DNA of 27,479 bases from Haliangiales bacterium (GTDB lineage: Bacteria; Myxococcota_A; Polyangia; Haliangiales; SHYZ01). Shown piece after piece: positions 1 to 23,415 of this stretch. The first letter of the stretch is position 1, and each line of letters begins with the position of its first letter. The stretch is from positions 1-27,479 of the forward strand of contig DATFWE010000262.1 in assembly GCA_035259575.1 (NCBI GenBank), in the 5' to 3' direction. A program made the translations under genes and the position numbers. The notes under the pieces are model-generated. The model was given only the letters and a program-made list of their open reading frames with translations, made no database searches and had not been told where the DNA came from.

Positions 1-2805
1 CTCGCCGCGGCCGCAGCGGACGCCGCCGCGCTCGCCGAGCTTCTGGGCGGCCCGGTCCCTGCCGAGCGCGTCGTCCGCCTCGGCGCCGGACCCTGTCGCG
101 CCGTGGTCCTGGACCCCACGCCGGAACGGCTCGCGCGCGCACGCGCGATCGTCGCCAAGGGCGAGGCGTGGATGGGCCGGAACGGTTTCTGGCACGCGCC
201 GCGGCCGCTCCTCGGCGAGGGCGGCAAGGTCGCGTTCGCGTTCCCCGGCGTCGACTCGTCATTTCAGCCGCGCGTCGACGACGTGGCGGCGCAGTTCGGC
301 CTACCGCTGCCGACGGGGACGGCTCCGGGGAGCCTGGAGGAGACCGGCGTCGGCATCGTGGGCGTGAACCGCCTCCTCCACCGGGTGCTGGTCGAGCTGG
401 GGGTCCGCCCCGACGTCCTCCTCGGTCACAGCATCGGCGAGTGGAGCGGCATGCTCGCCGCCGGGATCGTCGCCGAGAACGACGGCGACGCGTTCATCGC
501 GTCGGCCCGCCCGGGATCGCTCGAGGTCCCCGGGGTCGCGTTCGCCGCGGTGGGCTGCGGGATCGAGCGGGCCGCGGCCGCCATCGCCGGCCTGCCCGAC
601 GTCGCCGTGTCGCACGACAACTGCCCGCACCAGGTGATCCTGTGCGGGGCGGAGGCGAGCGTCGACGCGGCGCTGGCGCGCCTGCGCGCGGACGCCGTCC
701 TCGGACAGAAGCTGCCGTTCCGCTCCGGTTTCCATTCGCCGCTGTTCGCCGATTTTATGGGGCCGCACCGCGACAACTTCGCGCGCCTCGCGCTCGAGCC
801 GGCGCGCGTGCCGCTGTGGTCGGCGACGACGTGCGCCGAGTATCCCGCCGACGCGGCGGGCGTGCGCGCGCTCGCCCTTTCCCACCTCGTCGAGCCGGTC
901 CGTTTCCGCGAGCTCACCCTCGCGCTCCACGACCGCGGCGTGCGCGCGTTCGTGCAGGTCGGGACCGGGAGCCTTCCCGGCTTCATCGAGGACACGCTGC
1001 GCGGCCGCCCGCACGTCGCCGTGGCGGCGAACGTGCCCCAGCGGAGCGGCCTGGAGCAGCTCCAGCGCGTCCTGGCGACGCTGTTCGTCGAGGGCGCGGG
1101 CGGCGACGACGGCCGGGGCGTCGCGTTCGAGCGGCTCGCCGCCGCGCGGCCGGCGCGCGCCGCGACACCGCTGCGGCTGGGCGTGCCGCTGGTCCGCCTC
1201 ACCCGCCCGCTGTCGGTCGCGGCGGCGGCGCCCGAGGTGCCCGCCCATCCGGTGGCCGCCGCGTTCGCCGCATCGGTGGACTCGTTGCGGCGCGCCCAGG
1301 AGGACGTCCTCCTGCGCTTCGCCGCCCCGAAGCGGCCGCGGAGCGGCCCGCGCCAGGCGCGCTTCACCCGGCGCGTGTCGGTGGACGCGTTCCCCGAGCT
1401 CGCCGACCACACGTTCTTCCGCCAGCCCCCCGGCTGGACGACGATGACCGATCGCCACCCGGTCGTCCCGATGACCATGACCCTCGCCCTCATGATGGAG
1501 GCGGCGGCGGCGCTGGTCCCCGAGCGCACCGTCGTCGGCGTCGAGGACGTGCGCGCGTTCCGCTGGATCGCCGTGGGGGCGCCCATCGACGCCGAGCTGT
1601 CGCTCCGCTTCGACGGGAAGGATCGCGTGAGCGCGTCGATCGCCGGCTACGCCGAGGGCACGGTCGTCCTGGGCGAGCGCTATCCCGACGCGCCGCCGGC
1701 GTCCGCGGGGACGCTCGCCGCCGAGCGCCCCACCCCGAGCGACGCGGCGCGGCTCTACCGCGACCGGTGGATGTTCCACGGTCCCGCCTACCAAGGTGTC
1801 GTCGATCTCGGCCCCATGGGCGACGACGGCATCCGCGGCGTCCTCGAGGCGGGCGCGGCCAAGGGCGCGCTCCTCGACAACGCCGGCCAGCTGTTCGGCT
1901 ACTGGATCATGGTCACCAACGCCGTCGACCGGATGGCGATGCCGGTGCGGATCCGCCGCCTGCGCTTCTACGGCCCGCACCCGGCGCCGCGGGAGCGCCT
2001 CGACTGCCGCGTCGCGATCCGCAGGCAGGGCCCGCGCGAAGTGGTCGCCGATCTGGAGCTCGCGCGCGACGGGCGGGTGTGGTGCGCGATCGAGGAGTGG
2101 GAGGACCGCCGCTTCGACACCGACGCGCGCTTGTGGGACGTCTTTCGGTACCCGGAGCGTCACCTGCTCGCCGAGCCGCGCCCCGGCGGGTACGTCGTGT
2201 TCCACGACGTGTATCGCGCCGCGCCGACGCGCGAGCAGCTGTGCCGGCGTTTCCTGGGCGAGCGCGAGCGCGCCGCCTACGACGCGCAGGGGCCGCGCGG
2301 CCAGCGGGGCTGGCTGGCGGCGCGGATCGCCGGCAAGGACGCGGTGCGCGCGCACCTGTGGCGCGCCGGCCGGCGCGACGTGTTTCCCGTCGAGGTGGAG
2401 CTGGCGAACGAGCCGAACGGCCGGCCCGTCGTCGTCGCCCCGCGCGGCGCGGATCTGCGCATCTCGCTGGCGCACAAGGGCGACCTGGCGGTGGCGATGG
2501 TGGGCGAAGGGCGGGACGTGGGCATCGACGTGGAGCGGATCGAGCCGCGCGCGCCCGCGTTCGTCGCCGCGGCGTTCTCCGCCGAGGAGGCGGCGATGGC
2601 CGCCCCGGGCGAGGACCGCGAAGAGTGGTTGACCCGGCTGTGGACGGCGAAGGAGGCGGTGGGCAAGGCGCGCGGCACGGGTCTCGCGGGCAACCCGCGC
2701 CGGTGGCGGGCGACCGACCGCACCGGGGAGCGCATTCTCGTCGACGACGTCTGGGTGGAGACGCGCCGCGAGGGCGACCACATCATTGGCTGGAGCCACG
2801 CATGA
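1..2805 (+). CDS. C-terminal part of a type I PKS/FAS-like multidomain protein (5' partial, open to window edge): acyltransferase - dehydratase (double hotdog) - Sfp-type phosphopantetheinyl transferase
   Basis: No stop codon lies between position 1 and the first ATG (103) in this frame, so the gene likely continues upstream of the window. AT motifs are GKVAFAFPG, GHSIGE (nt ~424-441) and GFHSPLF. DH motifs are LADHTFF...P...LMMEAA (HxxxGxxxxP-like), HGPAYQGV (YGPxFQG-like) and LLDNAGQL. PPTase motifs in aa ~725-900 are GIDVERIE (GxDxE) and WTAKEAVGKARG (WxxKEAxxKxxG). Third-position GC is high throughout. Confidence 0.8.
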   Translation, partial: LAAAAADAAALAELLGGPVPAERVVRLGAGPCRAVVLDPTPERLARARAIVAKGEAWMGRNGFWHAPRPLLGEGGKVAFAFPGVDSSFQPRVDDVAAQFGLPLPTGTAPGSLEETGVGIVGVNRLLHRVLVELGVRPDVLLGHSIGEWSGMLAAGIVAENDGDAFIASARPGSLEVPGVAFAAVGCGIERAAAAIAGLPDVAVSHDNCPHQVILCGAEASVDAALARLRADAVLGQKLPFRSGFHSPLFADFMGPHRDNFARLALEPARVPLWSATTCAEYPADAAGVRALALSHLVEPVRFRELTLALHDRGVRAFVQVGTGSLPGFIEDTLRGRPHVAVAANVPQRSGLEQLQRVLATLFVEGAGGDDGRGVAFERLAAARPARAATPLRLGVPLVRLTRPLSVAAAAPEVPAHPVAAAFAASVDSLRRAQEDVLLRFAAPKRPRSGPRQARFTRRVSVDAFPELADHTFFRQPPGWTTMTDRHPVVPMTMTLALMMEAAAALVPERTVVGVEDVRAFRWIAVGAPIDAELSLRFDGKDRVSASIAGYAEGTVVLGERYPDAPPASAGTLAAERPTPSDAARLYRDRWMFHGPAYQGVVDLGPMGDDGIRGVLEAGAAKGALLDNAGQLFGYWIMVTNAVDRMAMPVRIRRLRFYGPHPAPRERLDCRVAIRRQGPREVVADLELARDGRVWCAIEEWEDRRFDTDARLWDVFRYPERHLLAEPRPGGYVVFHDVYRAAPTREQLCRRFLGERERAAYDAQGPRGQRGWLAARIAGKDAVRAHLWRAGRRDVFPVEVELANEPNGRPVVVAPRGADLRISLAHKGDLAVAMVGEGRDVGIDVERIEPRAPAFVAAAFSAEEAAMAAPGEDREEWLTRLWTAKEAVGKARGTGLAGNPRRWRATDRTGERILVDDVWVETRREGDHIIGWSHA

Positions 2806-3089
2806 GGGACGACGTCCTGGCCACGCTGCAGGCGATCCTGCGCGAGGTGATCGGCGAGGCGTGGGCCCAGGACGTCGAGATCACGCGCGCGACGTCGTTC
2901 AACCACGACCTCGAGCTGGAGAGCATCGAGTTCGTCGCGCTGGCGGAGAAGCTGCAAGCCGCCTACGGCCGCAGCGTCGATTTCACCGGTTGGCTGTCGG
3001 AGATGGAGCTCGACGAGATCATCGCCCTCCGCGTGGGGGACGTGGTGGAGTTCATCGAATCATGCCCGTCGTCCAGCAAAACGGCCTGA
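2802..3089 (+). CDS. Discrete acyl carrier protein (about 95 aa)
   Basis: Translation is MRDDVLATLQAILREV...FNHDLELESIEFVALAEKL. DLELESIEF matches the DLGxDSL phosphopantetheine-attachment motif with the Ser retained. The ATG at 2802 overlaps the upstream TGA (ATGA). This is the in-frame tail of track ORF 168..3089, whose upstream 880 codons are an Arg/Gly-rich artefact. Confidence 0.8.
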   Translation: MRDDVLATLQAILREVIGEAWAQDVEITRATSFNHDLELESIEFVALAEKLQAAYGRSVDFTGWLSEMELDEIIALRVGDVVEFIESCPSSSKTA

Positions 3090-3829
3090 GCTTCCACACG
3101 CAGGCCTTCGGCGCCGGTCCCCCGGCGGTGATGCTGCACGGCCTGCTCATCGGCAGCATGACGACGTGGTATTTCGGCGCGGCGCCGCGGCTGGCGCGCA
3201 GCCACCGGGTGCTCCTCTACGATCTGCGCGGGCACGGCAAGAGCGCCCGCGCGCGCCGGGGGTACGACCTGGCCACGATGGTGCGCGACCTCGACGCGCT
3301 CCTCGGCGACTTCACCGACGAGCCGGCGACGCTGGTGGGCCACAGCTACGGCGCGCTGACCGCGCTGCGCTTCGCCATGCTCCACCCCGAGCGGGTGGCG
3401 CGGCTCGTCCTCGTCGAGGCGCCGCTGCCGCCGCTCCGCCTGCCCGAGCTCGACCATTTCCTGCGCCGCCCGCGCGGCGAGATGGAGTCGGCGCTGCCCG
3501 ACGAGATCCGCCACGCGCTCCGTCGGGGCGGGCGCCAGGCGCTGCGTCTCGTGGATCAGCTCGCGTTCCTGGCCGCGGAGAGCAGCCTGCTCGCCGACCT
3601 CGACGCCGAGCCGGAGATCGGCGACGACGAGCTGGCCGCGCTCGCCTGCCCGCTGCTCGCGATCTACGGCAACCGCTCGAGCTGCCGGCCGGCGGGCGAT
3701 CGCCTGCGCCGGGTGGTGCCCGGCGCGCAGCTGGTCCTGCTTCCCGGCGGACACTTCCTGCCCACCGAGGCGGCCGAGGCGCTCACCCACGAGATCGTGC
3801 GCTTCTGCGCGGGGGACGTCGATGGCTGA
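3062..3829 (+). CDS. Alpha/beta-hydrolase fold protein (esterase/thioesterase/acyltransferase-like), paralog 1
   Basis: Starts MPVVQQNGLSFHTQAFGAGPPAVMLHGLL. The HG oxyanion region and the nucleophile elbow GHSYG (LVGHSYGALTA) are present. It is about 255 aa, typical of the family, and overlaps the ACP 3' end by 28 nt. Confidence 0.75.
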   Translation: MPVVQQNGLSFHTQAFGAGPPAVMLHGLLIGSMTTWYFGAAPRLARSHRVLLYDLRGHGKSARARRGYDLATMVRDLDALLGDFTDEPATLVGHSYGALTALRFAMLHPERVARLVLVEAPLPPLRLPELDHFLRRPRGEMESALPDEIRHALRRGGRQALRLVDQLAFLAAESSLLADLDAEPEIGDDELAALACPLLAIYGNRSSCRPAGDRLRRVVPGAQLVLLPGGHFLPTEAAEALTHEIVRFCAGDVDG

Positions 3830-4601
3830 GGTCGTGTGTCGCGGCGTGCGCCTGCACGTGCAGCGCCTGGGCGAGCCGGGGCGCGGGACGCCGGTCGTGT
3901 TCGTCCACGGCCTGGTGATGGACAACCTGTCGAGCTGGTATTTCACGCTCGCCAACCTGGCGGCGCGCACGACCGACGTGATCCTCTACGACCTGCGCGG
4001 CCACGGCCTCAGCGAGCGGCCGGCGACCGGTTACACGACCGAGGACATGGTGGCCGACCTGGCGGCGCTCCTCGACGAGCTGGGCGTGGACCAGCCGGTG
4101 GCGCTGGTCGGCAACAGCTTCGGCGGGATGGTCGCGCTCGCGTTCGCGCGCGCGCACCCCGATCGCGTCGATCGCATCGTGCTCGTCGACGCCCACGTCG
4201 GCGGCGACGGGTTCACAGGCAAGATGGTCGAGACGCTGAGCCTCGACGGCGACGAGCGCGACCGCAAGATCGCCGAGCATTTCGCGTCCTGGCTGGGGCG
4301 GCACAGCGCGCGCAAGCGCACGCGCCTCGCCGACGCCGCCGAGGGTCTCGTGCGGGGGACGACGCTCGTCGACGATCTCCGCCGGACGCCCCCGGTCACC
4401 GCCGAGGAGTTGACGCGCATCCGCGCGCCCGTCCTGGCGCTCTACGGCGAACGGTCCGACATCGTCCACGACTGCGCGCCGCTGCTCGCGTTCGTGCCCG
4501 AGTGCACGGTCGCGCTCGTCCCCGGCTGCACCCACTCGCTCCTGTGGGAGGCGACCGAGGAGGTCAAGCGGCGCACGCTCGCCTTCCTGGAGTCGCGCTG
4601 A
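3822..4601 (+). CDS. Alpha/beta-hydrolase fold protein, paralog 2 (tandem duplicate of the preceding gene)
   Basis: Starts MAEVVCRGVRLHVQRLGEPGRGTPVVFVHGL. The nucleophile elbow is GNSFGG. It shares the LYDLRGHG(K/L)S and AxDLxALLD blocks with paralog 1. Its ATG overlaps the upstream stop (ATGGCTGA, 8-nt overlap). Confidence 0.8.
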   Translation: MAEVVCRGVRLHVQRLGEPGRGTPVVFVHGLVMDNLSSWYFTLANLAARTTDVILYDLRGHGLSERPATGYTTEDMVADLAALLDELGVDQPVALVGNSFGGMVALAFARAHPDRVDRIVLVDAHVGGDGFTGKMVETLSLDGDERDRKIAEHFASWLGRHSARKRTRLADAAEGLVRGTTLVDDLRRTPPVTAEELTRIRAPVLALYGERSDIVHDCAPLLAFVPECTVALVPGCTHSLLWEATEEVKRRTLAFLESR

Positions 4602-4602
4602 C

Positions 4603-5757
4603 GTGGCGCGGATCCTGTTCGTGGTCCCGCCGCTCGTCGGCCACACCAACCCCACCGTGTCGGTGGCGGCGGCGCTCGGCGCGCTCGGACACGCGGTGGC
4701 GTGGGCGGCGCACCCCGACAAGGCGGCGCCGCTCCTGCCGCCCCGGGCGCGCATCCTGTCTCTGGGCGCTTGCGACGAGTCGGTGTTCGCGCCGATCTTA
4801 GAAAGGTCGCGACGGGTGCGCGGGCTCGAGGGGCTGCAGTTTCTGTGGCGGGACTTCCTGGTGCCGCTGGCGCGCGCGATGCTCCCCGCCGTCGACGTCG
4901 CGATCGCCGAGGCGCGTCCGGATCTCGTCGTCGTCGACCAGCAGGCGATCGGCGGCGCGCTGGCGGCGCGGCGCCGCGGCGTCCCCTGGGCGACGCTGTG
5001 CACGACCAGCGCCGAGCTCACCGATCCGCTCGCGGGGCTGCCCAAGGTCAAGGCGTGGACGATCGCCCAGCTCGCCGCGCTGCAGGAGGAGGCGGGGCTG
5101 CCGGTGGTGGAGCGCCCCGACCTGTCGCCGCGGCTGGTGGTGGTGCTGTCGACGCCGGCGCTCATCGGCGACGTGTCGGCGTTTCCGCCGCAGTGCCGCT
5201 TCGTCGGGCCGTCCATCCACGAAAGGCCCGACGCGACGCCGTTCCCGTGGGACGCGCTGGAGGAGCGCCCGCGCGTGCTCGTCTCGCTGGGGACGGTCAA
5301 CGCCGAACGGGGCGAGGCGTTCTATCGCACCGCGTTCGCGGCGCTCGCGGGCGCGCCGTTCCAGGTGATCCTCGTCGCGCCGGACGGCCTCGGCGGCGCG
5401 CCGCCGCCGGGGTTCCTCGTGCGCCCGCGCGTGCCGCAGCTCGCGCTCCTCCCCCACGTGCAGGCGGTGGTGAGCCACGGCGGGCACAACACGGTGTGCG
5501 AGGCGCTGGCGCACGGCATCCCGCTTGTGGTGACGCCGATCAAGGACGACCAGCCGGTGATCGCCGAGCAGGTCGTGCGGGCCGGCTGCGGGCTGCGCCT
5601 GCGCTTCGGGCGGCTGGAGCCGGCGGCGCTGCGCGCCGCGGTGGACCGCGTGCTGAACGAGCCGTCGTTCCGGGACAACGCGGCGCGCGTGGCTGCGTCG
5701 TTCGCCACGGCCGGCGGGGCGCGCGCCGCCGCGCGGCTGCTGGACGAGGTCGTATGA
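4603..5757 (+). CDS. GT1-family UDP-glycosyltransferase (MGT/UGT-like, OleD/CrtX-type)
   Basis: The N-terminus ILFVVPPLVGHTNPTVSVAAALGALGH is a typical GT1 acceptor-domain start. The C-terminal UDPGT signature is VSHGGHNTVCEALAHGIPLVVTPIKDDQPVIAEQV. A GTG start sits 1 nt after the upstream stop. Confidence 0.85.
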   Translation: MARILFVVPPLVGHTNPTVSVAAALGALGHAVAWAAHPDKAAPLLPPRARILSLGACDESVFAPILERSRRVRGLEGLQFLWRDFLVPLARAMLPAVDVAIAEARPDLVVVDQQAIGGALAARRRGVPWATLCTTSAELTDPLAGLPKVKAWTIAQLAALQEEAGLPVVERPDLSPRLVVVLSTPALIGDVSAFPPQCRFVGPSIHERPDATPFPWDALEERPRVLVSLGTVNAERGEAFYRTAFAALAGAPFQVILVAPDGLGGAPPPGFLVRPRVPQLALLPHVQAVVSHGGHNTVCEALAHGIPLVVTPIKDDQPVIAEQVVRAGCGLRLRFGRLEPAALRAAVDRVLNEPSFRDNAARVAASFATAGGARAAARLLDEVV

Positions 5758-7043
5758 CCCGGCCGCGCCACGCGTTCGTGGTGCGGGATCGGGCGACGAT
5801 CCCGCCGCTCGGAGCGCCCGCGGCGGAGTCGTGGCTGCTCGGCGGCCGGCTCCACGGCGAGATGCGGCGGCGCCTCGAGGCGTTCGGCCTCACGGTCGAG
5901 CGAGTCGACGGTGTGGAGGAGGCGGTCGCGCGCGCCGGCCGCTGCGCCGACGGGGCGATCGTGACGCACGATTCGGTGGCGTTCTCGCGCTCGGTCGTGC
6001 GCGGGCTCCTCGACGCGGTCGCGCGCGATCCGCGGCCGGCGCTGGCCGCGGCGCTGCCGCGCGCGCTGGCGACACGGCGGCTGTCGCACATCGGCGGCCT
6101 GGACGAGACGACCGTCGGCGGGACGCCCGCGTTCACCGCGCCGCTCTACGCCGTGCGCGCCGGCGCCGGCGTCGCCGCCGCCGAGCCCGTGCTGTTGCCG
6201 TATCGCGAGCTCGAGTGGAAGCTCCCCGTCCCCGTCGGCATGCTCGGCCGCAGCGAGGAGCCGTTCGGCGCGACCGACACCTACCTGGTGCGGGTGGACC
6301 ACTGGGGGCACATCCTGCACCTCAACGTCGCCGCGATGATCGCCGCGTGGTTCGAGCGTGGGCAGACGCTGGGCGGCAAGCTGTGGTACCTGTGGCGCGC
6401 GCTGTGCGGCTTCCCCTGGCGACGGGGGCGTCTCGCCGCGGCGATCCGGCGCGTGCACCGCACGGCGAAGGTCCACCACACGGCGCACGTCGAGCTGTCG
6501 GTGGTGGAGGCGGGCGCCGAGATCGGCCCGCACGCCGTGGTGAAGAACTCGTACGTGGCGCGCGGCGCGCGCATCGACGACGGGGCGCTGGTGAACGCGT
6601 GCGTCGTGGGCGAGGGGGCGTTCGTGGGATCGGCCGCCGCCGTGTTCAGCTCGGTGCTCTATCCCGGCGCGTTCGCGGCGCAGCACAAGATGCAGTTCTC
6701 GGTGCTGGGGGAGAGCTCGGTGGCGTTCACCGGGTCATATTTCTACGACACGAACTTCGAGCGCAACGTGCACGTGGCCCATCGCGGCCGCGTCGTCGAT
6801 TCGGGGGGGCGATTCATGTCCGTCTGTCTCGGCCCCTGGGCGCGCGTCGCGGGCGGCGTATGGATCGCGAGCGGGCGCGAGGTGCCGGCGCACGCGCTCA
6901 TCGTGCAGCCCCCCGATCGCGTGCTCCACCGCGTCGACGACGCGCTGGCCGCGAGCCGCATGACGACCGTGAAGGACCGCGGGCTCGTCGACGTGGGCCC
7001 GCTTCCGGCGGAGGCGGAGGAAGGACCGAAGCGGCTCGCGTGA
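5754..7043 (+). CDS. Hexapeptide-repeat (left-handed beta-helix) protein with an N-terminal domain of unknown function; possible sugar-nucleotidyltransferase-like or acyltransferase
   Basis: The ATG at 5754 overlaps the GT stop (ATGA). The C-terminal half has imperfect [LIV]-G-x-x-x-x repeats (VVKNSYVARGARIDDGALVNACVVGEGAFVGSAAAVFSSVL...). It is the in-frame tail of track ORF 4701..7043. The N-terminal 200 aa were not recognised. Confidence 0.55.
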   Translation: MTRPRHAFVVRDRATIPPLGAPAAESWLLGGRLHGEMRRRLEAFGLTVERVDGVEEAVARAGRCADGAIVTHDSVAFSRSVVRGLLDAVARDPRPALAAALPRALATRRLSHIGGLDETTVGGTPAFTAPLYAVRAGAGVAAAEPVLLPYRELEWKLPVPVGMLGRSEEPFGATDTYLVRVDHWGHILHLNVAAMIAAWFERGQTLGGKLWYLWRALCGFPWRRGRLAAAIRRVHRTAKVHHTAHVELSVVEAGAEIGPHAVVKNSYVARGARIDDGALVNACVVGEGAFVGSAAAVFSSVLYPGAFAAQHKMQFSVLGESSVAFTGSYFYDTNFERNVHVAHRGRVVDSGGRFMSVCLGPWARVAGGVWIASGREVPAHALIVQPPDRVLHRVDDALAASRMTTVKDRGLVDVGPLPAEAEEGPKRLA

Positions 7044-7053
7044 GGCGGGCGCC

Positions 7054-7377
7054 TCAGAACCAGGCCACGTATCCGGTGACGAAGCTGACGCTTCTGGGGT
7101 CGGTGGGGTGCACGCGCACGCCGCCCACGCTGACCTCCACGTAGAGCTCGGCCGCCTTCCAGATCATGCCCGCCGTTCCGCGCGGGTCGCGGGTGTTCTC
7201 CCGTCGAGGATCGGCCGTCTGCGGCAGCGGCGGAAGCTCCAGCGACCCGATGTACATGGTCGCGGTCGGTCGCGGGTGGTGGGAGACCACCTTGGTGAGG
7301 CGTTCGCGCACGTCGTCCGCGCGGGCGGCAGATGTGCCACCAAGGAGCACCAGCAACACGATGAGGCGGGACCGCAT
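7054..7377 (-). CDS. Small exported hypothetical protein (107 aa) with an N-terminal signal peptide
   Basis: Translation is MRSRLIVLLVLLGGTSAARADD...GYVAWF. GC3 is about 89%. It is the in-frame tail of artefactual track ORF 7054..10248, and the ATG (rc of cat at 7375-7377) was verified. Confidence 0.5.
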   Translation of the reverse strand: MRSRLIVLLVLLGGTSAARADDVRERLTKVVSHHPRPTATMYIGSLELPPLPQTADPRRENTRDPRGTAGMIWKAAELYVEVSVGGVRVHPTDPRSVSFVTGYVAWF

Positions 7378-7436
7378 GAGTCCCAGGGGGAGCTGCACGC
7401 GGCGTACCACCGCCCCGGGCACGGCATGACATGTAC

Positions 7437-8984
7437 TTACGGCTCGCGCTGGGGTGAACGCTCCCCACCGCCTGGTAACGCGCTCCCCGGCGCGCGCCGC
7501 CAACGGTTCTCGCGCCACGGCGACTTCACGAGCTTCCCATCGATCGCCGACAGCGACGGCTTCGCCCCCAGCGCGGCCGCGGGGCAGGTCGAGGTCGCGC
7601 GGTACGCGAGCGCGGCCGCGAGGCGCCCTTCGCCCGGGTCCCCGAGCGCGTGGGTGAAATCGTCCGCCACCTGGCAGCCGGGCAGGCCCGTCGGCCCCGT
7701 GCCGCCCGGCGTGAACCCGTCGGCGTAGTCCCCGAACCCCTTGTCGTTCACCCCCTGGAACTCGATCGAGAAATACGTCGTCCCGCAATTGTCCTGCGGA
7801 TAGAACCCGTACGGCTTGCCGCACGTCGTCGAGCCGATCTGGATCACGTCCACGTCGATGCCGCGAAGGCTGTTCATCACCGATTCGCTCGCGGAACAGG
7901 TATCGAGGCCGGTCAGCACGAACACCCGCCCCAGGCCGAGCGAGGGCAGCGGCGCCCCGTTCGGCGCGGTGAACCCGAGCGACTTGTCCCAGAACGGCAT
8001 GGGCGCCAGCACTTCGCCGGTGACCGGGTCCCTCGTCGGGTACTTGTCGTTGAACTCGGTCCGCTCGAAGGTCTTGCCGGCCGTCCTCGCCCGACCCGCG
8101 ATCATGAAGGCGAGCTCGCTCGCGATGTCGAGGTAGCCGCCGCCGTTGTAGCGCATGTCGATCACGAGGTCGGTGACCCCGGCGGTCCGGAGCTGGCCGA
8201 TCGCGGCGATGAGCGCCGCCTCGGCGGTCGCGAGGTGATCGTTGAACGTCATGTAGCCGAGCGAGCCCGTCGCCGTCGATAGCACCTTGACGTTCTTGAC
8301 CGGCACGCTCATGACCTTCGCCGACGTCAGCACGACCGTGCGCGCCGTCGCCGCGCCGAGGTCCCGCAGCACGAACGTGTGGCTCTCGTTGAGCGCCGAC
8401 GGATAGAGCCCCTCGTTGAGCGTGCGGACGTCCGAACCGTTCTGTACGTCCACGCCGTCGATGGTCAGCACCTCCGCCCCGCGCGCCACGTTGGCCGCGG
8501 CTGCCGGAGTGCCGGGGTCGACGTCCGCCACTACCAGCTTGCGCGGCGGCCGAGCCGCGAGCAGCGCCCACTGCAGGCCGTAGCCCGCCTGCACGCCCGA
8601 CTGCGACAGCGCCTCCCAGTCCGCCGTCGCGTACGTGAAGTGGAACTGGTCCTTGGGCTTGCCCGACGCCGTGATCGCCGGGGTCTTGAGCGCCTCGAAG
8701 TAGGTGACGGCCGTCGCGTAGTCGCCCGGATTCACCGACGGCACCTCGCGGTACCACAGGTAGAGCTCGTCGGTCCAGGAGCGCAGCCAGCTCTTCTCGT
8801 CGTCGAGCGTGCCCTGCGTGTCGGGGTAGGGCCTGTTCGTCCCGGGGTCGATGCCGGTCCGCGGCGACGCGCACTTCGCGGCGAACATCGACGACGGTGG
8901 AAACGGTGAAGACGGACCCTCGTCGCCCCCGCACGCGGCCGCGGCCAGTGCCAGCCCGCACATTGCTCGTGACGCCATGACCAC
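7437..8984 (-). CDS. S41-family peptidase (C-terminal processing/tail-specific protease-like), lipoprotein
   Basis: Signal peptide with lipobox MASRAMCGLALAAAAC|GG. The S41 signature block is LVIDMRYNGGGYLDIASELA, upstream of a PDZ-like region. The start is a GTG at 8984 or, more likely, the ATG at 8978. Confidence 0.8.
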   Translation of the reverse strand: MVMASRAMCGLALAAAACGGDEGPSSPFPPSSMFAAKCASPRTGIDPGTNRPYPDTQGTLDDEKSWLRSWTDELYLWYREVPSVNPGDYATAVTYFEALKTPAITASGKPKDQFHFTYATADWEALSQSGVQAGYGLQWALLAARPPRKLVVADVDPGTPAAAANVARGAEVLTIDGVDVQNGSDVRTLNEGLYPSALNESHTFVLRDLGAATARTVVLTSAKVMSVPVKNVKVLSTATGSLGYMTFNDHLATAEAALIAAIGQLRTAGVTDLVIDMRYNGGGYLDIASELAFMIAGRARTAGKTFERTEFNDKYPTRDPVTGEVLAPMPFWDKSLGFTAPNGAPLPSLGLGRVFVLTGLDTCSASESVMNSLRGIDVDVIQIGSTTCGKPYGFYPQDNCGTTYFSIEFQGVNDKGFGDYADGFTPGGTGPTGLPGCQVADDFTHALGDPGEGRLAAALAYRATSTCPAAALGAKPSLSAIDGKLVKSPWRENRWRRAPGSALPGGGERSPQREP

Positions 8985-9089
8985 GTTCGCTCGACCATGC
9001 TGGCATCGCCGGCGCGCGCCTGCAAGTGCGCGCGATCACGCCGGCGCGAGGAGCGCACGCGCCGCGTGGGAATCGATCGTCATCCGCCG

Positions 9090-9206
9090 CTAGGGCCGCA
9101 TCGCGATGACGAGGCCGAGCAAGGCGAGCAACACCAGAACGATGGTGAGCGAGGCGTGCTTCTCCCAGAAACGGCGCGGTCCGCGGTCGTGCTTGTCTGC
9201 GTGCAT
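9090..9206 (-). CDS. Small single-pass membrane protein (38 aa), not present in the supplied ORF track
   Basis: The reverse complement reads ...GGAGGAGACCATC ATG CAC GCA GAC AAG..., giving MHADKHDRGPRRFWEKHASLTIVLVLLALLGLVIAMRP*. There is a strong Shine-Dalgarno 6 nt upstream. GC3 is about 87%. It has a charged N-terminus followed by a hydrophobic helix and lies 105 nt upstream of the S41 peptidase gene on the same strand. Confidence 0.4.
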   Translation of the reverse strand: MHADKHDRGPRRFWEKHASLTIVLVLLALLGLVIAMRP

Positions 9207-9278
9207 GATGGTCTCCTCCGTGGCGGCCGCCGCGCGACCGCCGAAAACAGCGTTTCCGTGTGCTGGATGCGTGTCGGC

Positions 9279-9602
9279 TCAGACCGACGGAGGAGGAGCG
9301 CGGGCGTGGAGCGTGCGGGCGGCGGGCTCCCCGGCGAGACCCGCGCACGCCGGCCGCGCCGGCGCCGGCCGCACGCCGCGATCGGCGTCGCCGCGGGCCA
9401 CGCTCGGCGGCAGGATCGCCGCCTGGCGGCCGGGCGCCGAGCGGCGGGCCGCGGCATGGTCGCGAGCGGGCGCGACCACCGCGTCGCCGCGATCGCCGCG
9501 CGCCGATACGCCCGCCCGGCCTGGTCCCGCGCCGAGCGGCTCCCACCCCGTCGCGAGCGACGCGACGAGACAGATGCCGAGGAGCCACGTCCGGACGCGC
9601 AT
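9279..9602 (-). CDS. Possible small secreted protein (107 aa), low-complexity Ala/Arg/Pro-rich after the signal peptide
   Basis: The N-terminus MRVRTWLLGICLVASLATGW is a convincing signal peptide and GC3 is high. The remainder is low complexity, so this may instead be a GC-frame artefact. It lies divergent to the oxygenase gene. Confidence 0.3.
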   Translation of the reverse strand: MRVRTWLLGICLVASLATGWEPLGAGPGRAGVSARGDRGDAVVAPARDHAAARRSAPGRQAAILPPSVARGDADRGVRPAPARPACAGLAGEPAARTLHARAPPPSV

Positions 9603-9675
9603 GGGGGATCGTCACCGTAGCAGCTTCCCGCGCGCCGGCAATCGACTTTGGCGGTCCGTGATAGGGTCTCCAGCG

Positions 9676-10266
9676 GTGCGCAGCAACCCCGCGACGGCGA
9701 TCGTCTGCCTGCCCCTCCTCGACGCGGGGGAGTGCGACGCATGGCTCGCGCATCTCCAGGGGTGCGACTGGCAGGACGCGCGCGTCGCCTCGCCGGCCTA
9801 CGGCTCGTCGGTCGAGCGGGTCATCCGCAGCACGGCGACGACCGAGTGCCGCGACCCCGAGCGCATGGCGCGCATCGTCGACTGGATCGCCGAGCTCAAC
9901 CGCGGGCTGTTCCGCTTCGACCTCGACGGTCCGTCGCCGTCCGACCCGCTGCTGGCGATGCGCTACCGCGAGGGCGACCACTTCGACTGGCACATCGACA
10001 ACTCGATCGAAGCGGTCGCCACGCGCAAGCTGAGCTTCACGCTCCAGCTCACCCCGCCGGACGAATACGACGGCGGCGACCTCGAGTTCGCCATGTACGC
10101 CGCGAGCTACGGCGGCACCGCCCCGTTCGCCGGCTACACCCGCGACGTGCGCCGGCGCGGCGCGATCACCGTGTTTCCCGCGTTCCACCTCCACCGCGTG
10201 AGCCCCGTCACCCGCGGCACACGCCTCGCCTTGGTCGGCTGGCTTCACGGCCCGCGGTTCCGATGA
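9676..10266 (+). CDS. Fe(II)/2-oxoglutarate-dependent oxygenase (PKHD/PiuC-YbiX-like hydroxylase family)
   Basis: HxD...H facial triad: DHFDWHIDNS and FHLHRVSPVTRGTRLALVGW. A GTG start at 9676 is preferred over the in-frame ATG at 9601, because codons 9601-9675 have AT-rich third positions. Confidence 0.7.
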   Translation: MRSNPATAIVCLPLLDAGECDAWLAHLQGCDWQDARVASPAYGSSVERVIRSTATTECRDPERMARIVDWIAELNRGLFRFDLDGPSPSDPLLAMRYREGDHFDWHIDNSIEAVATRKLSFTLQLTPPDEYDGGDLEFAMYAASYGGTAPFAGYTRDVRRRGAITVFPAFHLHRVSPVTRGTRLALVGWLHGPRFR

Positions 10267-11003
10267 TCGTGGACTCGCGCGAACGCTTCAGCGCCACCGC
10301 CGACGCCTATCGGCGCTATCGGCCCGGTTACCCCGCCCCGCTCCTCGACTGGATCGCGGCCACCACCGGCGCGCCGCCCGACGCCCGCGTGGCCGACATC
10401 GGCTGCGGCACCGGCATCTCCAGCCGCTTTCTGGCGACGCGCGGCTTCCGCGTCGTGGGCGTCGAGCCGAACGCGGACATGCTCGCGCACGCCCGCGCGG
10501 CCGGCGGCGGGCCCACCTACGTCCGGGGGGAGGCCGCGCGCACCGGCCTCCCCGACGCCTCGGTCGACCTCGTCACCGCGGCCCAGGCGTTCCACTGGTT
10601 CGAGCTCGAGCCGACGCTCGTCGAGATCCGGCGGATCGCCGTGCCCGGAGCGTGGATGTGCGCATTCTGGAACGTCCGCGTCGCGACCCCGTTCAACGAC
10701 GAGTACGAGCGCATCCTCCACGCTTACTCCAGCGAGTACGCGCCGCTGTCCGACACCCTCGATCCGCGCGACGCGATCCGCGCGGCCGTCGCCGGAACGG
10801 TGTGCACCGAGATGCACAACGACGAGGCGCTGGCGTGGGACGCGGTCCTGGGGCGCGCGCGTTCCGCGTCGTACGTCGCGCACGGCGTGGCCGATCTCGC
10901 CGGTTTCGAACGGGAGCTGCGGGCGGCCTACGAGCGCCACGCGCGGCCCGACGGCACGCTCGTGTGGGCGCTGCGCACCGTGGCGGCGGCGTGGCCGGCG
11001 TGA
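10263..11003 (+). CDS. Class I SAM-dependent methyltransferase
   Basis: Motif I is VADIGCGTGISSRFLATRGFRVVGVEPNADML, with an acidic residue at the end of beta-2 and motif II DLVTAAQAFHWF. The ATG overlaps the oxygenase stop (ATGA). Confidence 0.8.
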   Translation: MIVDSRERFSATADAYRRYRPGYPAPLLDWIAATTGAPPDARVADIGCGTGISSRFLATRGFRVVGVEPNADMLAHARAAGGGPTYVRGEAARTGLPDASVDLVTAAQAFHWFELEPTLVEIRRIAVPGAWMCAFWNVRVATPFNDEYERILHAYSSEYAPLSDTLDPRDAIRAAVAGTVCTEMHNDEALAWDAVLGRARSASYVAHGVADLAGFERELRAAYERHARPDGTLVWALRTVAAAWPA

Positions 11004-12469
11004 TGGCGCCCAGGCGCTACGCCATCGCGCGCCTCGTCGGGCTGGCCGTCCATTTCGTCGAGGTCCTGGCGCTGACGCGCCTGTTCCCCGACGTACGGCT
11101 CGCCCTGGCGCTGGGGATGGCCGGCGTCTGCCGCCTCGTCGGCGCGATCGCGGGGACGCGCCCGGCCCGCGCGACGGGCGCGGTCGCGCTCGCCTCCCTG
11201 GCGGTGTGCCTGGTCGTCGTGCGCCTCTACGGCGGACCGCCCGGCGCGCTCGACGTCTACGCCGTGGTGTGCGCGGCGCGCCTCGCGTTGCAGGTCGGCG
11301 GCCGTCTGGACGAGATCGAGGCCGGCCTGGCGCCCGGCTCGCTCCTCGTGGTCGCGCTCGCCACCGCGGCGGCGTCGCTCCACACCCTCGTCGTCGTCCA
11401 TCTCCTCGCCGGCGCCTTCGCCGTCGCGCTGACGTGGCCGCGCGCGGTCGATCCCGCGTCGGTCGCCGAGGCCGCCGTGGGGCGACTGGCGCCGACGGTC
11501 GGCGCGGTCGCGTGGCTCGTCGGTCAGGGGATGGTCGCGGGCGCGGGCGCCGGCGTCGACGTCGTGGCCGCCGTCGTCTCCCTGCCCGCGTTCCTCGCGG
11601 CCGGCCAGCTCGCCGGCAACCGCCTCCGCCGCGCCGCCGCCGACCGGCACGGCGATCTCTCGGTGACCGCGCTCTACACCAGCGGCGCCTGGAGCTGGGG
11701 GCGCCTCCCGGGCGCCGAGCTCCTCGCCAGCCGCGAGGCGAAGGCCGCGTTCGACGGCACCAACCTCGTCCTGGCGGTGACCAGTCTGTTCGCGTCGGGA
11801 CCGTCGCTGCGCTGCTCGCTCATCCAGCGGCACCTCATGATCGATCGCCTGCTCGCCGACGCCGGCGCCAAGCACGTCCTCGAGCTCGCCGCCGGCCTGT
11901 CGCGGCGGGGCGTGGCGGTCACCGCCGACCCGACCGTGCGCTACACCGAGGTCGACCGCGCCCCGGTGATCGCCCACAAACGCCGCCTGCTCGCGCGCAG
12001 CGACGCCGGCCGCGCGGCGCTCGCCCGGCCCAACCTCCGCCTCGTCGGGGCGGATGTCGTCGACGCCCCGCTGGGCGATCTCGCCGACGCGCCCGACGGC
12101 GCGCCGCTGTTCGTCATCGCCGAGGGTCTGCTCATGTACCTCGACGCGCCGGCGCAGCGCTCGCTGTGGCGCCGCATCCGGGCGCTGTTCGACCGCCGCC
12201 CCGGCGTCCTGGTGTTCGATCTCGTGCCCCTCGCCGAGCACGCCCGCGTGGGCCGCGCCGGCCGGGCGCTCCGCTGGCTGTTCCGGCGCGCCACCCGCGG
12301 CGCCCGCTTCGCGCGGGATGCGCGCACCCGCCACGACATCGCCGCCGAGCTCCGGGACCTCGGCTTCGCCGTCGAGCTCCTCGAGCCGAGCGCGGTGATC
12401 GATCGCTGGCGGCTGCCCCACGGCGACGTCCGCACCCAGCAGCTGTTGTTCGTGTGCCGCGTGGGCTGA
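11003..12469 (+). CDS. Fusion protein: N-terminal polytopic membrane domain (~230 aa, 5-6 predicted TM helices) + C-terminal TcmP / leucine-carboxyl-methyltransferase-family SAM-dependent O-methyltransferase domain
   Basis: Hydrophobic N-terminal segments include LVGLAVHFVEVLALT, LALALGMAGVCRLVGAI, AVALASLAVCLVVV, LLVVALATAAASLHTLVVVHLLAGAFAVAL and VAAVVSLPAFLAAG. C-terminal motifs are VLELAAGLSRRG (motif I), YTEVDRAPV and the LCM/TcmP hallmark FVIAEGLLMYL. The start overlaps the upstream stop (TGATG). Confidence 0.7.
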   Translation: MAPRRYAIARLVGLAVHFVEVLALTRLFPDVRLALALGMAGVCRLVGAIAGTRPARATGAVALASLAVCLVVVRLYGGPPGALDVYAVVCAARLALQVGGRLDEIEAGLAPGSLLVVALATAAASLHTLVVVHLLAGAFAVALTWPRAVDPASVAEAAVGRLAPTVGAVAWLVGQGMVAGAGAGVDVVAAVVSLPAFLAAGQLAGNRLRRAAADRHGDLSVTALYTSGAWSWGRLPGAELLASREAKAAFDGTNLVLAVTSLFASGPSLRCSLIQRHLMIDRLLADAGAKHVLELAAGLSRRGVAVTADPTVRYTEVDRAPVIAHKRRLLARSDAGRAALARPNLRLVGADVVDAPLGDLADAPDGAPLFVIAEGLLMYLDAPAQRSLWRRIRALFDRRPGVLVFDLVPLAEHARVGRAGRALRWLFRRATRGARFARDARTRHDIAAELRDLGFAVELLEPSAVIDRWRLPHGDVRTQQLLFVCRVG

Positions 12470-12486
12470 CGGGGTAAGCTTTCCCC

Positions 12487-13374
12487 GTGCCCGACGCACC
12501 GCGCTGGTTCCGAGACGCGCTCGCCGCGCCGCGGTCCGAGCACACGATCCATGTGGCGGGCGCCGGCATCCACTACGTTCGCTGGGGCGACGGCGGCAAG
12601 CCGGGGCTCGTCCTGGTCCACGGCGGCGCCGCGCACGCCGAGTGGTGGTCGTTCCTGGCGCCGCTGCTCACGCGCCAGTACGACGTCGTGGCGCTGGACC
12701 TGAGCGGCCACGGCGACAGCGACCGCCGCGAGGAGTATCCGCGTCGCGTGTGGGCCGACGAGGTTCTGGCCGTCATCGCCGACGCCCACTTCCCCGGCCC
12801 GCCGGTGCTGATCGGCCACAGCATGGGCGGGCTGGTGAGCATCGTCGCCGCGTCCGTCTACGGCGACGAGCTCGCCGGCGCGATCATCGTCGACGCGCCG
12901 GTGCGCAAGCCCGACCCGGAGAGCGAGGAGGGCAACTACGGGCGGAGCTTCCGCCACCCCAAGGTCTACCCGACGCTCGACGAGGCGGCGGCGCGGTTCC
13001 GCCTGATCCCGCCCCAGCCCGTCGAGGCCGCGTACATCGTCGACCACATCGCGCGCGCCTCCCTGCGCCGCGTCGACGGCGGCTGGACGTGGAAGTTCGA
13101 CCCGCGCGTGTTCATCAAGTTCTCCAAGGAGAAGATGAGCGACTACCTGTCGAGCACGCGCTGCCGGGTGGCGCTCCTGCGCGGCGAGAAGAGCATCGTC
13201 GTGCCCCCCGAGACGGGGACCTACATGTACGAGCTCCTCAGCCGCACCTCGCCCCTGGTCGAGATCCCCGAGGCGCACCACCACCTCATCCTCGATCAGC
13301 CGCTGGCGTTCATCGCGGCGGTGCGGGCGATCCTCGCCGACTGGGAGCACTCGATCCCGCGCGGGCCGGCGTGA
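12487..13374 (+). CDS. Alpha/beta-hydrolase fold protein, paralog 3
   Basis: PGLVLVHGGAAHAEWW, ALDLSGHGDSD and nucleophile elbow IGHSMGG. A GTG start is given, and codon bias supports coding from 12487. An alternative start is the GTG at 12553. Confidence 0.75.
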   Translation: MPDAPRWFRDALAAPRSEHTIHVAGAGIHYVRWGDGGKPGLVLVHGGAAHAEWWSFLAPLLTRQYDVVALDLSGHGDSDRREEYPRRVWADEVLAVIADAHFPGPPVLIGHSMGGLVSIVAASVYGDELAGAIIVDAPVRKPDPESEEGNYGRSFRHPKVYPTLDEAAARFRLIPPQPVEAAYIVDHIARASLRRVDGGWTWKFDPRVFIKFSKEKMSDYLSSTRCRVALLRGEKSIVVPPETGTYMYELLSRTSPLVEIPEAHHHLILDQPLAFIAAVRAILADWEHSIPRGPA

Positions 13375-14143
13375 GCGTGGCGACCAGCGTGCCGCGGTCG
13401 AACACCCACAGGTCCCCGGGGCGGCCCTGGGTCCACGTCTCGTTGTGGGTGAGCGGCGCGGTGGCGACGATCGCGACCCGATCGCGCGCCGTGGTCACCC
13501 GCGAGAAGTCGATGCGGACGTCCTCGTCGGCGAGCTGGGCCACGCCGAACGGCGCCTTGCGGATGATGTACCACAGCTTCGTGGAGCAGCGCGCGTAGAG
13601 GTGGCGGCCGTCGCCGAGGAGGAAGTTGAACGTGCCGTCGGCGCCGAGCTCGGCCCCGATGTCGGCGACCGCTTCCCACAGGTCGCTCGGCCGGCGCGGG
13701 TAGCCGGCGAACCGGCGATCCAGGCGCGCGAGCAGGCAGCAGAACGCGTGCTCGCTGTCGGTCTGCCCGATCGGGCGAAAGCGCCCGAGCCGCCGCCGCC
13801 GGACGCGGCGCAGCGTGCCGTTGTGGGCGAACACCCAGGTGCGACCCCACAGCTCGCGCGCGAACGGATGGGTGTTGGCGAGCGTGGTCTTCCCGCGCGT
13901 CCGGCGCCGCACGTGCCCCACCGCGAGCATCGTCTTGATCGGGTGCTCGCCGAGGAAGCTCGCGAGCGGGCTGCGCGCGGCCGGCGCCGGCTCGAGGAAC
14001 ACGCGCGCCGCGCGCCCCTCGTAAAACGCCAGCCCCCAGCCGTCGCCGTGCGGTCCGGTCTTGCCGCCGCGGAGCCGGAGACCCGTGAACGAGAACACGA
14101 TGTCGGTCGGCACGTTGCATTCCATCCCGAGGAGCTCACACAT
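13310..14143 (-). CDS. Class II (Ntn-type) glutamine amidotransferase, YafJ-like
   Basis: N-terminal Met-Cys nucleophile MCELLGM, with GxxGxxHGDGWG and HxRxAT-like blocks (GHVRRRTRGKTTLANTHPF). The 3' end overlaps the convergent hydrolase by 65 nt. Confidence 0.75.
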   Translation of the reverse strand: MCELLGMECNVPTDIVFSFTGLRLRGGKTGPHGDGWGLAFYEGRAARVFLEPAPAARSPLASFLGEHPIKTMLAVGHVRRRTRGKTTLANTHPFARELWGRTWVFAHNGTLRRVRRRRLGRFRPIGQTDSEHAFCCLLARLDRRFAGYPRRPSDLWEAVADIGAELGADGTFNFLLGDGRHLYARCSTKLWYIIRKAPFGVAQLADEDVRIDFSRVTTARDRVAIVATAPLTHNETWTQGRPGDLWVFDRGTLVATLTPARAGSSAPSRRGSPAPPR

Positions 14144-14174
14144 CGCGGCGACCGACGATTATACTGGCGGCGCG

Positions 14175-16891: not shown

Positions 16892-16926
16892 CAGCGCGCC
16901 CCGCGCGGGTGCAGAATACGCGCACC

Positions 16927-22657: not shown

Positions 22658-22742
22658 CCGCAGGCGGGTTCCGCGCGGGGACGTTCGCCAGCAAAGACGG
22701 ATGCTTACCGATGGCGCTCGCCTTGCAACGACCCCGGGCGAT

Positions 22743-23414: not shown

Positions 23415-23415
23415 C

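Follow-up and report, generated by a model that had tools for sequence, protein, structure and literature searches.

Enediyne polyketide synthases (PKSE), such as SgcE, CalE8 and DynE8, are iterative type I synthases that carry ketosynthase (KS), acyltransferase (AT), acyl carrier protein (ACP), ketoreductase (KR), dehydratase (DH) and 4'-phosphopantetheinyl transferase (PPTase) domains in the order KS-AT-ACP-KR-DH-PPTase, and their C-terminal Sfp-type PPTase self-activates the carrier. The PKSE are akin to the polyunsaturated fatty acid (PUFA) synthases, and in the RerA/RerB synthase of Rhodococcus erythropolis PR4 (Type Q) product formation is reported to depend on the PPTase domain of the second protein (PMC11563203). 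Shulse and Allen (2011) described Type M from Renibacterium salmoninarum, Frankia, Streptomyces avermitilis and Actinosynnema, and Type P from Beijerinckia indica and Azotobacter vinelandii, in which type I fatty acid synthase (FAS)/polyketide synthase (PKS) genes flank two type III PKS genes and which makes the C22-C26 acyl chains of the Azotobacter cyst phenolic lipids (PMC3098273). ArsD has been described as the PPTase that serves ArsA (PMC4824345), and a fused pfaDA together with a pfaBC homologue carrying a PPTase domain has been described (PMC13291983). In this study, we analyzed a 27,479-nt stretch of DNA from a Haliangiales bacterium (contig DATFWE010000262.1, hereafter the window), in which a gene at nt 1-2805 encodes AT, DH and PPTase domains. 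Its 935 visible codons very probably specify the C-terminal part of a second subunit, belonging to a secondary lipid synthase of the PUFA-synthase/Ars family that is iterative, FAS-like and of type I and consists of two proteins, because the enoylreductase (ER)-KS-AT-ACP-KR partner found in relatives and the homology to Ars-type proteins mark a PKS without carrier and ketoreductase domains as one subunit of a split synthase.

Domains and folds of the visible protein

The window had a base composition of ~74% GC. On the plus strand, frame 1 had no stop between nt 1 and its terminal TGA (2803-2805), with 935 codons visible and the 5' end cut by the window edge, and the GC content of third codon positions was ~0.95 over the whole length. 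The open frame and the uniform third-position signal indicated a single gene running past the 5' edge. Pfam placed Acyl_transf_1 at aa 117-346 (E = 8e-17, profile positions 64-292 only), a weak PKS_DH_N at aa 450-546, PS-DH at aa 577-707 (E = 7e-10) and ACPS at aa 840-915 (E = 4.5e-17), consistent with a second-subunit gene of the order (KS?)-AT-DH-PPTase, and neither PP-binding nor KR was matched across the 934 aa of the visible protein. The distance from the end of the AT (~aa 367) to the start of the DH (~aa 450) was only ~85 residues, so that an ACP-KR segment cannot fit there, and full-length homologues showed the same AT-DH order without ACP-KR in between. The preliminary description of this DNA had proposed a megasynthase that ends in a DH followed directly by an in-cis PPTase, with no KR or ACP between AT and PPTase and with a discrete ACP behind it. 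This order was borne out by the Pfam matches and the short gap, a 95-aa ACP was found at 2802-3089, and all of the quoted motifs were present (GHSIGE at aa 142-147, WMFHGPAYQGV at 590-600, LLDNAGQL at 624-631, GIDVE at 841-845 and WTAKEAVGKA at 881-890). The statement that the megasynthase ends in this way holds for the visible C-terminal 935 aa, the gene's 5' end being cut by the window.

Structure prediction showed the expected folds. The AlphaFold2 model of aa 425-934, with 48 homologues in the alignment, had a predicted local distance difference test (pLDDT) score of 92.6 and a predicted template modelling (pTM) score of 0.87. Foldseek searches of the Protein Data Bank (PDB) with this region returned PKS double-hotdog DHs (CurH, CurF, CurJ, MlnB, MAS-like PKS, PpsC and DEBS) with E-values down to 2e-14 over ~290 columns, in agreement with the profile hidden Markov model (HMM) match and with the double-hotdog DH proposed earlier. 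The model of aa 708-934 (pLDDT 94.7) had Sfp as its top match (4mrt; E = 6e-12, TM 0.69/0.70, 211 columns), followed by human AASDHPPT, PptAb and PptT; the Sfp-type fold of the preliminary description was thus upheld, with the catalytic Asp/Glu and Lys/Glu residues present and invariant. The presence of an AT, a PKS-type double-hotdog DH and a full Sfp-type PPTase in one frame was confirmed, as the HMMs, the folds and the catalytic residues agreed. The pTM score suggests a fixed packing of the DH against the PPTase in one didomain, not a beads-on-a-string arrangement, and such packing would fit the conservation of the didomain as a unit from ars-type proteins to the family of the window gene.

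The AT (aa ~75-367, nt 223..1101, plus strand) was found to be atypical from the Acyl_transf_1 match, a phmmer search of the PDB and column counts over 117 homologues. Its Ser-His dyad was kept (GHSIGE at aa 142-147 and GFHS at aa 243-246), and GHSxGE and GFHS occurred in 91/91 sequences. The GQGxQ of malonyl transferases was replaced by PGVDSSF in the window protein and PGVDASF in the family, and the malonyl-binding Arg was not conserved, the nearest column holding an Arg in only 39 of the 117 homologues. Thermus FabD was the best PDB match (80 bits), and the top NCBIfam models were a PKS-plus-SDR model and PfaA. The lost motifs suggest that the AT, instead of loading malonyl units, may transfer long acyl chains in the manner of PfaB, for which a role as terminal long-chain acyltransferase was recently shown (PMC12895367).

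The PKS-type double-hotdog DH (aa ~450-707, nt 1348..2121, plus strand) was delimited by Pfam, the AlphaFold2 model with Foldseek, a profile match and invariant columns. The Pfam scores of its halves were modest (39 and 20 bits), and a profile search of the PDB found the CurK DH (E = 3.5e-7), aligning only the C-terminal two-thirds of the domain. In 48 sequences with 45-61% identity, H470 (LADH), HGP at 593-595, D626 and Q630 (LLDNAGQ) were invariant. The histidine motif was non-canonical and read DHxFFxQxxxWxxxxDxxPVVPMT (aa 467-492, window 1399-1476): the invariant D469-H470 stood ~20 residues before the Pro/PxxP that precedes the central helix, compared with a spacing of 9 in the canonical HxxxGxxxxP, and H486, the His nearer that Pro, varied across the family. 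The departure from HxxxGxxxxP and the modest Pfam scores could be taken as signs of degeneration, with the DH or the PPTase domain kept as a non-catalytic structural relic. This is most improbable, since the DH residues named above and D843, E845, W881, K884, E885 and K889 of the PPTase were invariant in the 48 sequences, the same residues were conserved in a B. indica protein of only 31% identity, and the conserved cassette of related loci encoded no other DH.

The Sfp-type (group II) PPTase (aa 708-934, nt 2122..2802, plus strand) was also matched by the NCBIfam models AcpT and HetI. It contained the motifs NGRP (806-809), ISLAH (821-825), GIDVE (841-845) and WTAKEAVGK (881-889), and its metal- and CoA-binding residues were all invariant. 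NGRP and ISLAH correspond to the motifs P1a, x(G/D)xP, and P1b', hShxH, reported for Types M-T (PMC3098273), and the G, P, S and H residues were kept in the family. The fungal FAS alpha subunit, to which the protein had first been likened, also has a PPTase built into a fatty-acid megasynthase, but its PPT domain is AcpS-like, ~120 aa long and oligomeric. In Foldseek, AcpS and the fungal FAS PPT domain covered about half of the PPTase domain (~110-120 columns; fungal FAS ~115-120 columns, E ~1e-3), versus the 211 columns of Sfp. According to the model, the PPTase is a full-length Sfp-type pseudo-dimer and not AcpS-like as in fungal FAS, and that comparison did not hold.

Partner subunit, conserved cassette and related synthases

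A search of 5.8 billion proteins returned 1,301 relatives (protein clusters) at E <= 1e-10. The full-length relatives were mostly KS-AT-DH-PPTase proteins of ~1,400 aa, with a minority of AT-DH-PPTase proteins of ~910 aa; the closest of them in the databases were 56-64% identical, and one 540-aa fragment was 81% identical. A GTDB scan of one genome per species, with two family-specific DH peptides as queries, found the DH-PPTase didomain in at least 572 species. Carriers among the matches listed were Kofleriaceae, Polyangiaceae and Haliangiales in the Myxococcota, Pseudonocardiaceae, Streptomyces, Nocardioides and Acidimicrobiales in the Actinomycetota, and, in other phyla, Burkholderiales and Rhodocyclaceae (Proteobacteria), Sulfidibacter (Acidobacteriota) and Planctomycetota. 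Published pfa clusters of Sulfidibacter and Minicystis were considered as instances of the same cassette and rejected as canonical PUFA loci.

Gene order was counted by domain-by-domain tblastn in 83 loci, the best 80 GTDB loci and three others, and only loci with sufficient flanking DNA were counted for each feature; since the loci were drawn from the best matches, the counts are biased to close relatives. In four loci (L001, L002 from Pendulispora brunnea, L003 and L086), a partner gene directly upstream encoded a protein of 2,214-2,375 aa with an NMO-type ER, a KS, an AT, one ACP and a KR, in this order. Upstream of the second subunit, a KR was present in 64/64 loci and an ER in 56/59, and a KS was fused ahead of the AT in 63/70. 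A small ACP lay directly after the PPTase in 77/81 loci, followed by a hydrolase after the ACP (70/74) and a GT (glycosyltransferase) downstream (61/66); a 600-aa methyltransferase (29/51) and an LCM methyltransferase (9/50) were found directly after the GT. L001, L002 and L003 shared the same downstream genes, namely the small ACP, two hydrolases, the GT and methyltransferases. The hydrolases numbered two in Myxococcota loci and one in most Actinomycetota loci, and no second DH was encoded in the conserved cassette of related loci. The window keeps the operon order of its relatives, with ATGA and other short gene overlaps. No type III PKS (Chal_sti_synt, ACP_syn_III_C), KR, hotdog thioesterase or enediyne accessory protein was found among the window proteins scanned. 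Because KR, ACP and ER sit on the upstream partner in the relatives, these domains would be supplied in trans, and from the synteny we infer that an ER-KS-AT-ACP-KR gene probably lies just upstream of the window edge in the source genome.

Such a partner bears directly on whether the gene encodes a self-contained PKSE-like (enediyne/polyene) iterative PKS, with the internal ACP-KR lost and the discrete ACP downstream serving in its place. The Sfp-type PPTase directly C-terminal to the DH reproduces the C-terminal order of PKSE, and a discrete ACP does follow the gene. The window protein differs from PKSE in its domain order, with no ACP-KR between AT and DH, and a DH requires a beta-hydroxy substrate, yet the protein has no KR; in the related loci, the KR was always on the upstream partner. 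The NMO-type ER on the partner is incompatible with conjugated polyene or enediyne products, no hotdog thioesterase or other enediyne cassette genes (UnbL/UnbU/UnbV-type) were present among the scanned window proteins, and the best NCBIfam models of the AT pointed to a PKS-plus-SDR protein and PfaA. RerA/RerB is a related polyene synthase that also has its PPTase inside a multidomain protein (PMC11563203), and it resembles the present system as an iterative PUFA/PKSE-like synthase spread over two proteins, with the PPTase in the second multifunctional one. In RerA (KS-AT-ACP-ACP-KR-DH) and RerB (PPTase-Y-TE, with TE for thioesterase), however, the DH sits on the first protein, unfused to the PPTase, an ER is absent, and conjugated polyenes are produced. 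A self-contained PKSE-like enzyme is therefore hardly probable, although the kinship with PKSE may reflect real common ancestry of the DH-PPTase pair. Since the missing domains sit on a partner in the relatives, genome miners are advised against annotating this gene as a novel enzyme of the PKSE kind. A plasmid match (H14, Streptomyces plasmids) that had been considered as PKSE was a stand-alone PPTase in an unrelated cluster and was rejected.

The preliminary description's reading of the split subunit as an unusual variant of PKSE or fungal FAS architecture is likewise not supported: ACP, KR and ER are on the upstream partner in related loci, the didomain is widespread (572 GTDB species or more, with 1,301 protein clusters matched), and the arrangement has already been published (Type M of PMC3098273; in PMC13291983, a PPTase-bearing pfaBC homologue beside a fused pfaDA). 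The window protein has an AT-DH with a fused C-terminal PPTase, as in a Type M-like second subunit, and it has the P1a and P1b' motifs; its relatives share with Type M the two-gene core of [ER-KS-AT-ACP-KR] followed by [KS-AT-DH-PPTase] and an uncharacterised product. The identity with Type M was drawn from the published description and not from the R. salmoninarum, Frankia or S. avermitilis loci. The window differs in having two hydrolases and extra tailoring genes and in its identity of <=64% to full-length database proteins. Judged by its domains, the window protein fits the published kind with a fused pfaDA and a pfaBC-PPTase, an architecture that appears to have been catalogued already.

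In Streptomyces sp. NBC_01243, the entire cassette was located on a linear plasmid, under generic PGAP names (type I PKS, 'beta-ketoacyl synthase N-terminal-like domain-containing protein', 'acyl carrier protein', alpha/beta hydrolase, glycosyltransferase and methyltransferase), and many other Streptomyces proteins of the family carried similarly generic names. The cassette was also found in Pseudonocardiaceae and Nocardioides. When the Streptomyces DH-PPTase served as the query against proteins, most matches were truncated gene calls with generic names, and S. avermitilis, Frankia and Renibacterium were not among them. On a plasmid of Rhodobacteraceae bacterium SC52 (L088, 10649-14539), a 1,296-aa protein named 'PPTase superfamily' contained a DH-PPTase match and was followed by a 94-aa open reading frame (ORF); upstream, after a very large 'SDR family' protein, were a TauD dioxygenase, two hypothetical proteins and a methyltransferase. 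This arrangement appears to be another cassette variant, perhaps Type O.

When plasmids were searched by tblastn with the DH-PPTase region as query, pBIND02 of B. indica ATCC 9039 was matched. The gene order there was ER-KS-AT-ACP-KR (2,674 aa), two type III PKSs, a 629-aa DH-PPTase, a GT and an ABC exporter. The 629-aa stand-alone protein (L085, 15821-17710) had PS-DH and ACPS domains and was aligned with the window didomain over both domains with 31% identity (E = 6e-59), and the two shared the motifs LADH, PV(V/L)PMT, MFHGP, ALLDxxGQ, G(I/V)D(V/I)E and W(T/C)AKEAxGK. Methylosinus sp. C49 (L087, 12923-14617) showed the same layout with one type III PKS. These stand-alone DH-PPTases of 560-630 aa had no discrete ACP after them and an ABC/RND-type exporter downstream. 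By analogy, we take the architecture of ArsD from the B. indica Type P cluster. The homology to the B. indica protein indicates that the DH-PPTase is an old module that acts in trans with an ER-KS-AT-ACP-KR protein, and the sequences indicate that it is fused behind (KS)-AT in the window family.

The Ars/Type P systems thus resemble the relatives of the window gene in the ER-KS-AT-ACP-KR layout of the partner, in DH and PPTase acting in trans on the ACP of the partner, and in a GT and transporters nearby. They differ in that the didomain stands alone beside one or two type III PKSs and without a discrete ACP, whereas in the window an AT (and probably a KS) precedes it in the fused protein, and genes for an ACP, hydrolases and a GT1 come next. 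The homology of the didomain to the Beijerinckia and Methylosinus proteins would be expected of an ars-type, ArsD-like subunit of a type I FAS whose C22-C26 acyl chains are passed on to type III PKSs for phenolic lipids. Such a role has little chance of being correct here, as no type III PKS was found among the scanned window proteins, the PPTase is followed instead by a small ACP, both in the window and in most related loci, and the fusion to the AT, and probably to a KS, is lacking in the ars proteins.

The KS ahead of the AT was assessed from the relatives. The first 20 visible residues matched the KS-AT linker of the long forms; the short forms carry this segment too, 10-25 residues past their start codon, so that the sequence alone cannot decide between the two forms. 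A neighbour-joining tree built on the AT-DH-PPTase part common to both forms placed the true short forms in one clade and the window protein among the long forms, nearest to P0012 and P0014 (64% identity). This placement makes KS-AT-DH-PPTase likelier, and the window protein probably has an N-terminal KS. The KS of the long forms had a Cys-His-His triad in 91/91 sequences, indicating a genuine KS and not a chain-length factor (CLF), and no second KS-like domain was present in them. The short form (AT-DH-PPTase, ~910 aa), represented by loci L003, L033, L064, L065, L070 and L084 and by proteins P0011, P0019, P0039, P0044-P0051, P0060 and P0070, was monophyletic and had no KS, which implies that the second KS is dispensable in some lineages.

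The intact KS of the long forms also helps to separate the window gene from a PfaC/PfaB-type subunit of a canonical PUFA synthase making polyunsaturated fatty acids. There is overall kinship with pfa genes, the partner in relatives being a PfaD-like ER fused to a PfaA-like KS-AT-ACP-KR, and the AT is like PfaB in having no malonyl-recognition motifs (PMC12895367). PfaC, however, has a tandem FabA-like DH/isomerase pair (PMC3098273), whereas the sole DH here is a single PKS-type double hotdog. Furthermore, the KS-CLF pair and the tandem ACPs of canonical PUFA synthases were not found: the long forms have no CLF, and the partner in relatives carries one ACP. The conserved neighbours are an ACP, a hydrolase and a GT, not pfaE or AGPAT. 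A canonical PUFA subunit is therefore very unlikely, and we retain the second subunit of a secondary lipid synthase as the probable identity of the gene.

Proposed chain assembly and product

Homology to the Ars system and the completeness of the domain set make a two-subunit iterative synthase the most likely scheme. Subunit A, the partner, would carry out condensation, malonyl loading, ketoreduction and enoylreduction, with the growing chain held on its ACP. Subunit B, encoded in the window, would perform dehydration as the sole DH of the system and would probably contribute a second intact KS for part of the elongation cycles. Its PPTase would convert the ACP domain of the partner and the small downstream ACP from the apo to the holo form using CoA, and the acyl chain made by the two subunits together would be long and largely saturated. 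Transfer of the completed chain to the discrete ACP would fall to the atypical AT; the loci without the AT (Beijerinckia and Methylosinus) also had no discrete ACP, and the loci with the AT nearly always had one. The alpha/beta-hydrolases may release or transfer the chain, and the GT1 and the methyltransferases may turn it into a glycolipid. A long-chain lipid bearing a sugar is the probable product.

The cassette [ER-KS-AT-ACP-KR]/[(KS)-AT-DH-PPTase]/ACP/hydrolase(s)/GT1, often with methyltransferases, was conserved from Streptomyces to myxobacteria, Burkholderiales, Acidobacteriota and Planctomycetota. We suggest, tentatively and with somewhat less than even confidence, that it makes an undescribed class of glycosylated, possibly methylated, long-chain lipid, in which the AT without the Arg hands the finished chain to the discrete ACP and loads no malonate. 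No product for the family was found in the literature searched, no paper using the strings 'KS-AT-DH-PPT(ase)' or 'ER-KS-AT-ACP-KR' was found in a full-text search, and a paper on the evolution of heterocyst glycolipids made no mention of non-cyanobacterial homologues. If the suggestion is true, differentiating or resting cells could carry the product as a lipid of their envelope, by analogy with the heterocyst glycolipids and the Azotobacter cyst phenolic lipids.

Several points weigh against these proposals. The window ends before the N-terminus of the protein, and neither the KS nor the partner gene was seen in the source genome. The catalytic-His motif of the DH departs from HxxxGxxxxP, and the equivalence of H470 to the canonical His was not established residue by residue, as the PDB profile aligned the C-terminal two-thirds of the DH only. 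The co-occurrence of the AT and the discrete ACP depends on just two counter-examples. No member of the exact cassette has a known product, and the glycolipid outcome and the hand-off from AT to ACP are conjecture. In the window, reverse-strand genes (7054-8984) separate the methyltransferase/oxygenase block from the GT.

The window protein is a new, fairly divergent member of a widespread family, and its architecture is ordinary given the partner. The DH-PPTase didomain is a conserved evolutionary module common to the ars-type phenolic-lipid synthases and this larger family, which spans several phyla with a strikingly constant ACP-hydrolase-glycosyltransferase tail. Cultured carriers (Pendulispora brunnea, Sulfidibacter corallicola, Nocardioides solisilvae and Streptomyces sp. 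NBC_01243) make the product testable.

Downstream operon and the rest of the window

The discrete ACP (95 aa, 2802..3089, plus strand) was recognized by Pfam PP-binding at 22 bits, just over the cut-off, and by NCBIfam ACP models, and its start ATG overlapped the upstream stop as ATGA. The attachment Ser was residue 41, in DLELESIEF (nt 2922-2924), and was invariant in four orthologues. Two alpha/beta-hydrolases followed on the plus strand, the first (3062..3829; Abhydrolase_1, E = 1e-23) with a 28-nt overlap with the ACP gene and the second (3822..4601; Abhydrolase_1, E = 7e-30) with a weak Thioesterase match. The next gene (4603..5757, plus strand) encoded a GT1 (MGT/UDPGT family) glycosyltransferase, which was matched by NCBIfam TIGR01426 (E = 3e-52; 178 bits, under its 260-bit cut-off) and by Pfam UDPGT and EryCIII-like_C.

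A 428-aa left-handed beta-helix (hexapeptide) protein (5754..7043, plus strand) had an ATGA overlap with the GT gene. Its Pfam and NCBIfam matches (LbH_EIF2B, Hexapep_GlmU and the C-terminus of mannose-1-P guanylyltransferase) were all weak, and it is possibly a sugar-nucleotide enzyme. A homologue was present in only one related locus, L009, so that its membership of the cluster is uncertain. Two genes on the minus strand (7054-8984), a 128-aa ORF without Pfam match and an S41 peptidase with a PDZ domain, interrupted the plus-strand biosynthetic genes.

Beyond them, a probable tailoring block (9106..13374, plus strand) was delimited by Pfam matches; related loci carry methyltransferases directly after the GT, and the block putatively belongs to the cluster. 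It comprised a 2-oxoglutarate (2OG)-Fe(II) oxygenase ORF (9106-10266), an S-adenosylmethionine (SAM) methyltransferase (~10260-11003), an LCM-type methyltransferase (~10928-12469) and a third alpha/beta-hydrolase (12487-13374), all on the plus strand. The oxygenase ORF had a clear coding signal only from ~9600, the codon-position GC signal being weak or ambiguous at 9001-9650, and its domain matches were confined to the C-terminal half, which makes the real start uncertain. At 10260-12469, the window encoded a 247-aa methyltransferase and a 513-aa protein with the LCM domain at its C-terminus, and the counterpart in L001 (17252-19914) was a 599-aa methyltransferase and a 288-aa LCM protein. 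This difference in gene boundaries could be due to fission or fusion of a middle domain, or to a frameshift near 10.9-11.0 kb.

Two further plus-strand ORFs had strong coding signals: one of 635 aa (14061-15968) without Pfam match and one of ~974 aa (16900-19824) with only weak beta-propeller (Lactonase/SGL) and CCP_MauG matches. At the 3' end of the window, an unrelated sugar cluster (22701-27469) encoded an RraA-like aldolase, a NeuB-family synthase, a CMP-sugar-type cytidylyltransferase and a histidine phosphatase, with a capsule-synthesis-like protein on the minus strand, and its gene content suggests nonulosonic-acid or capsule biosynthesis.

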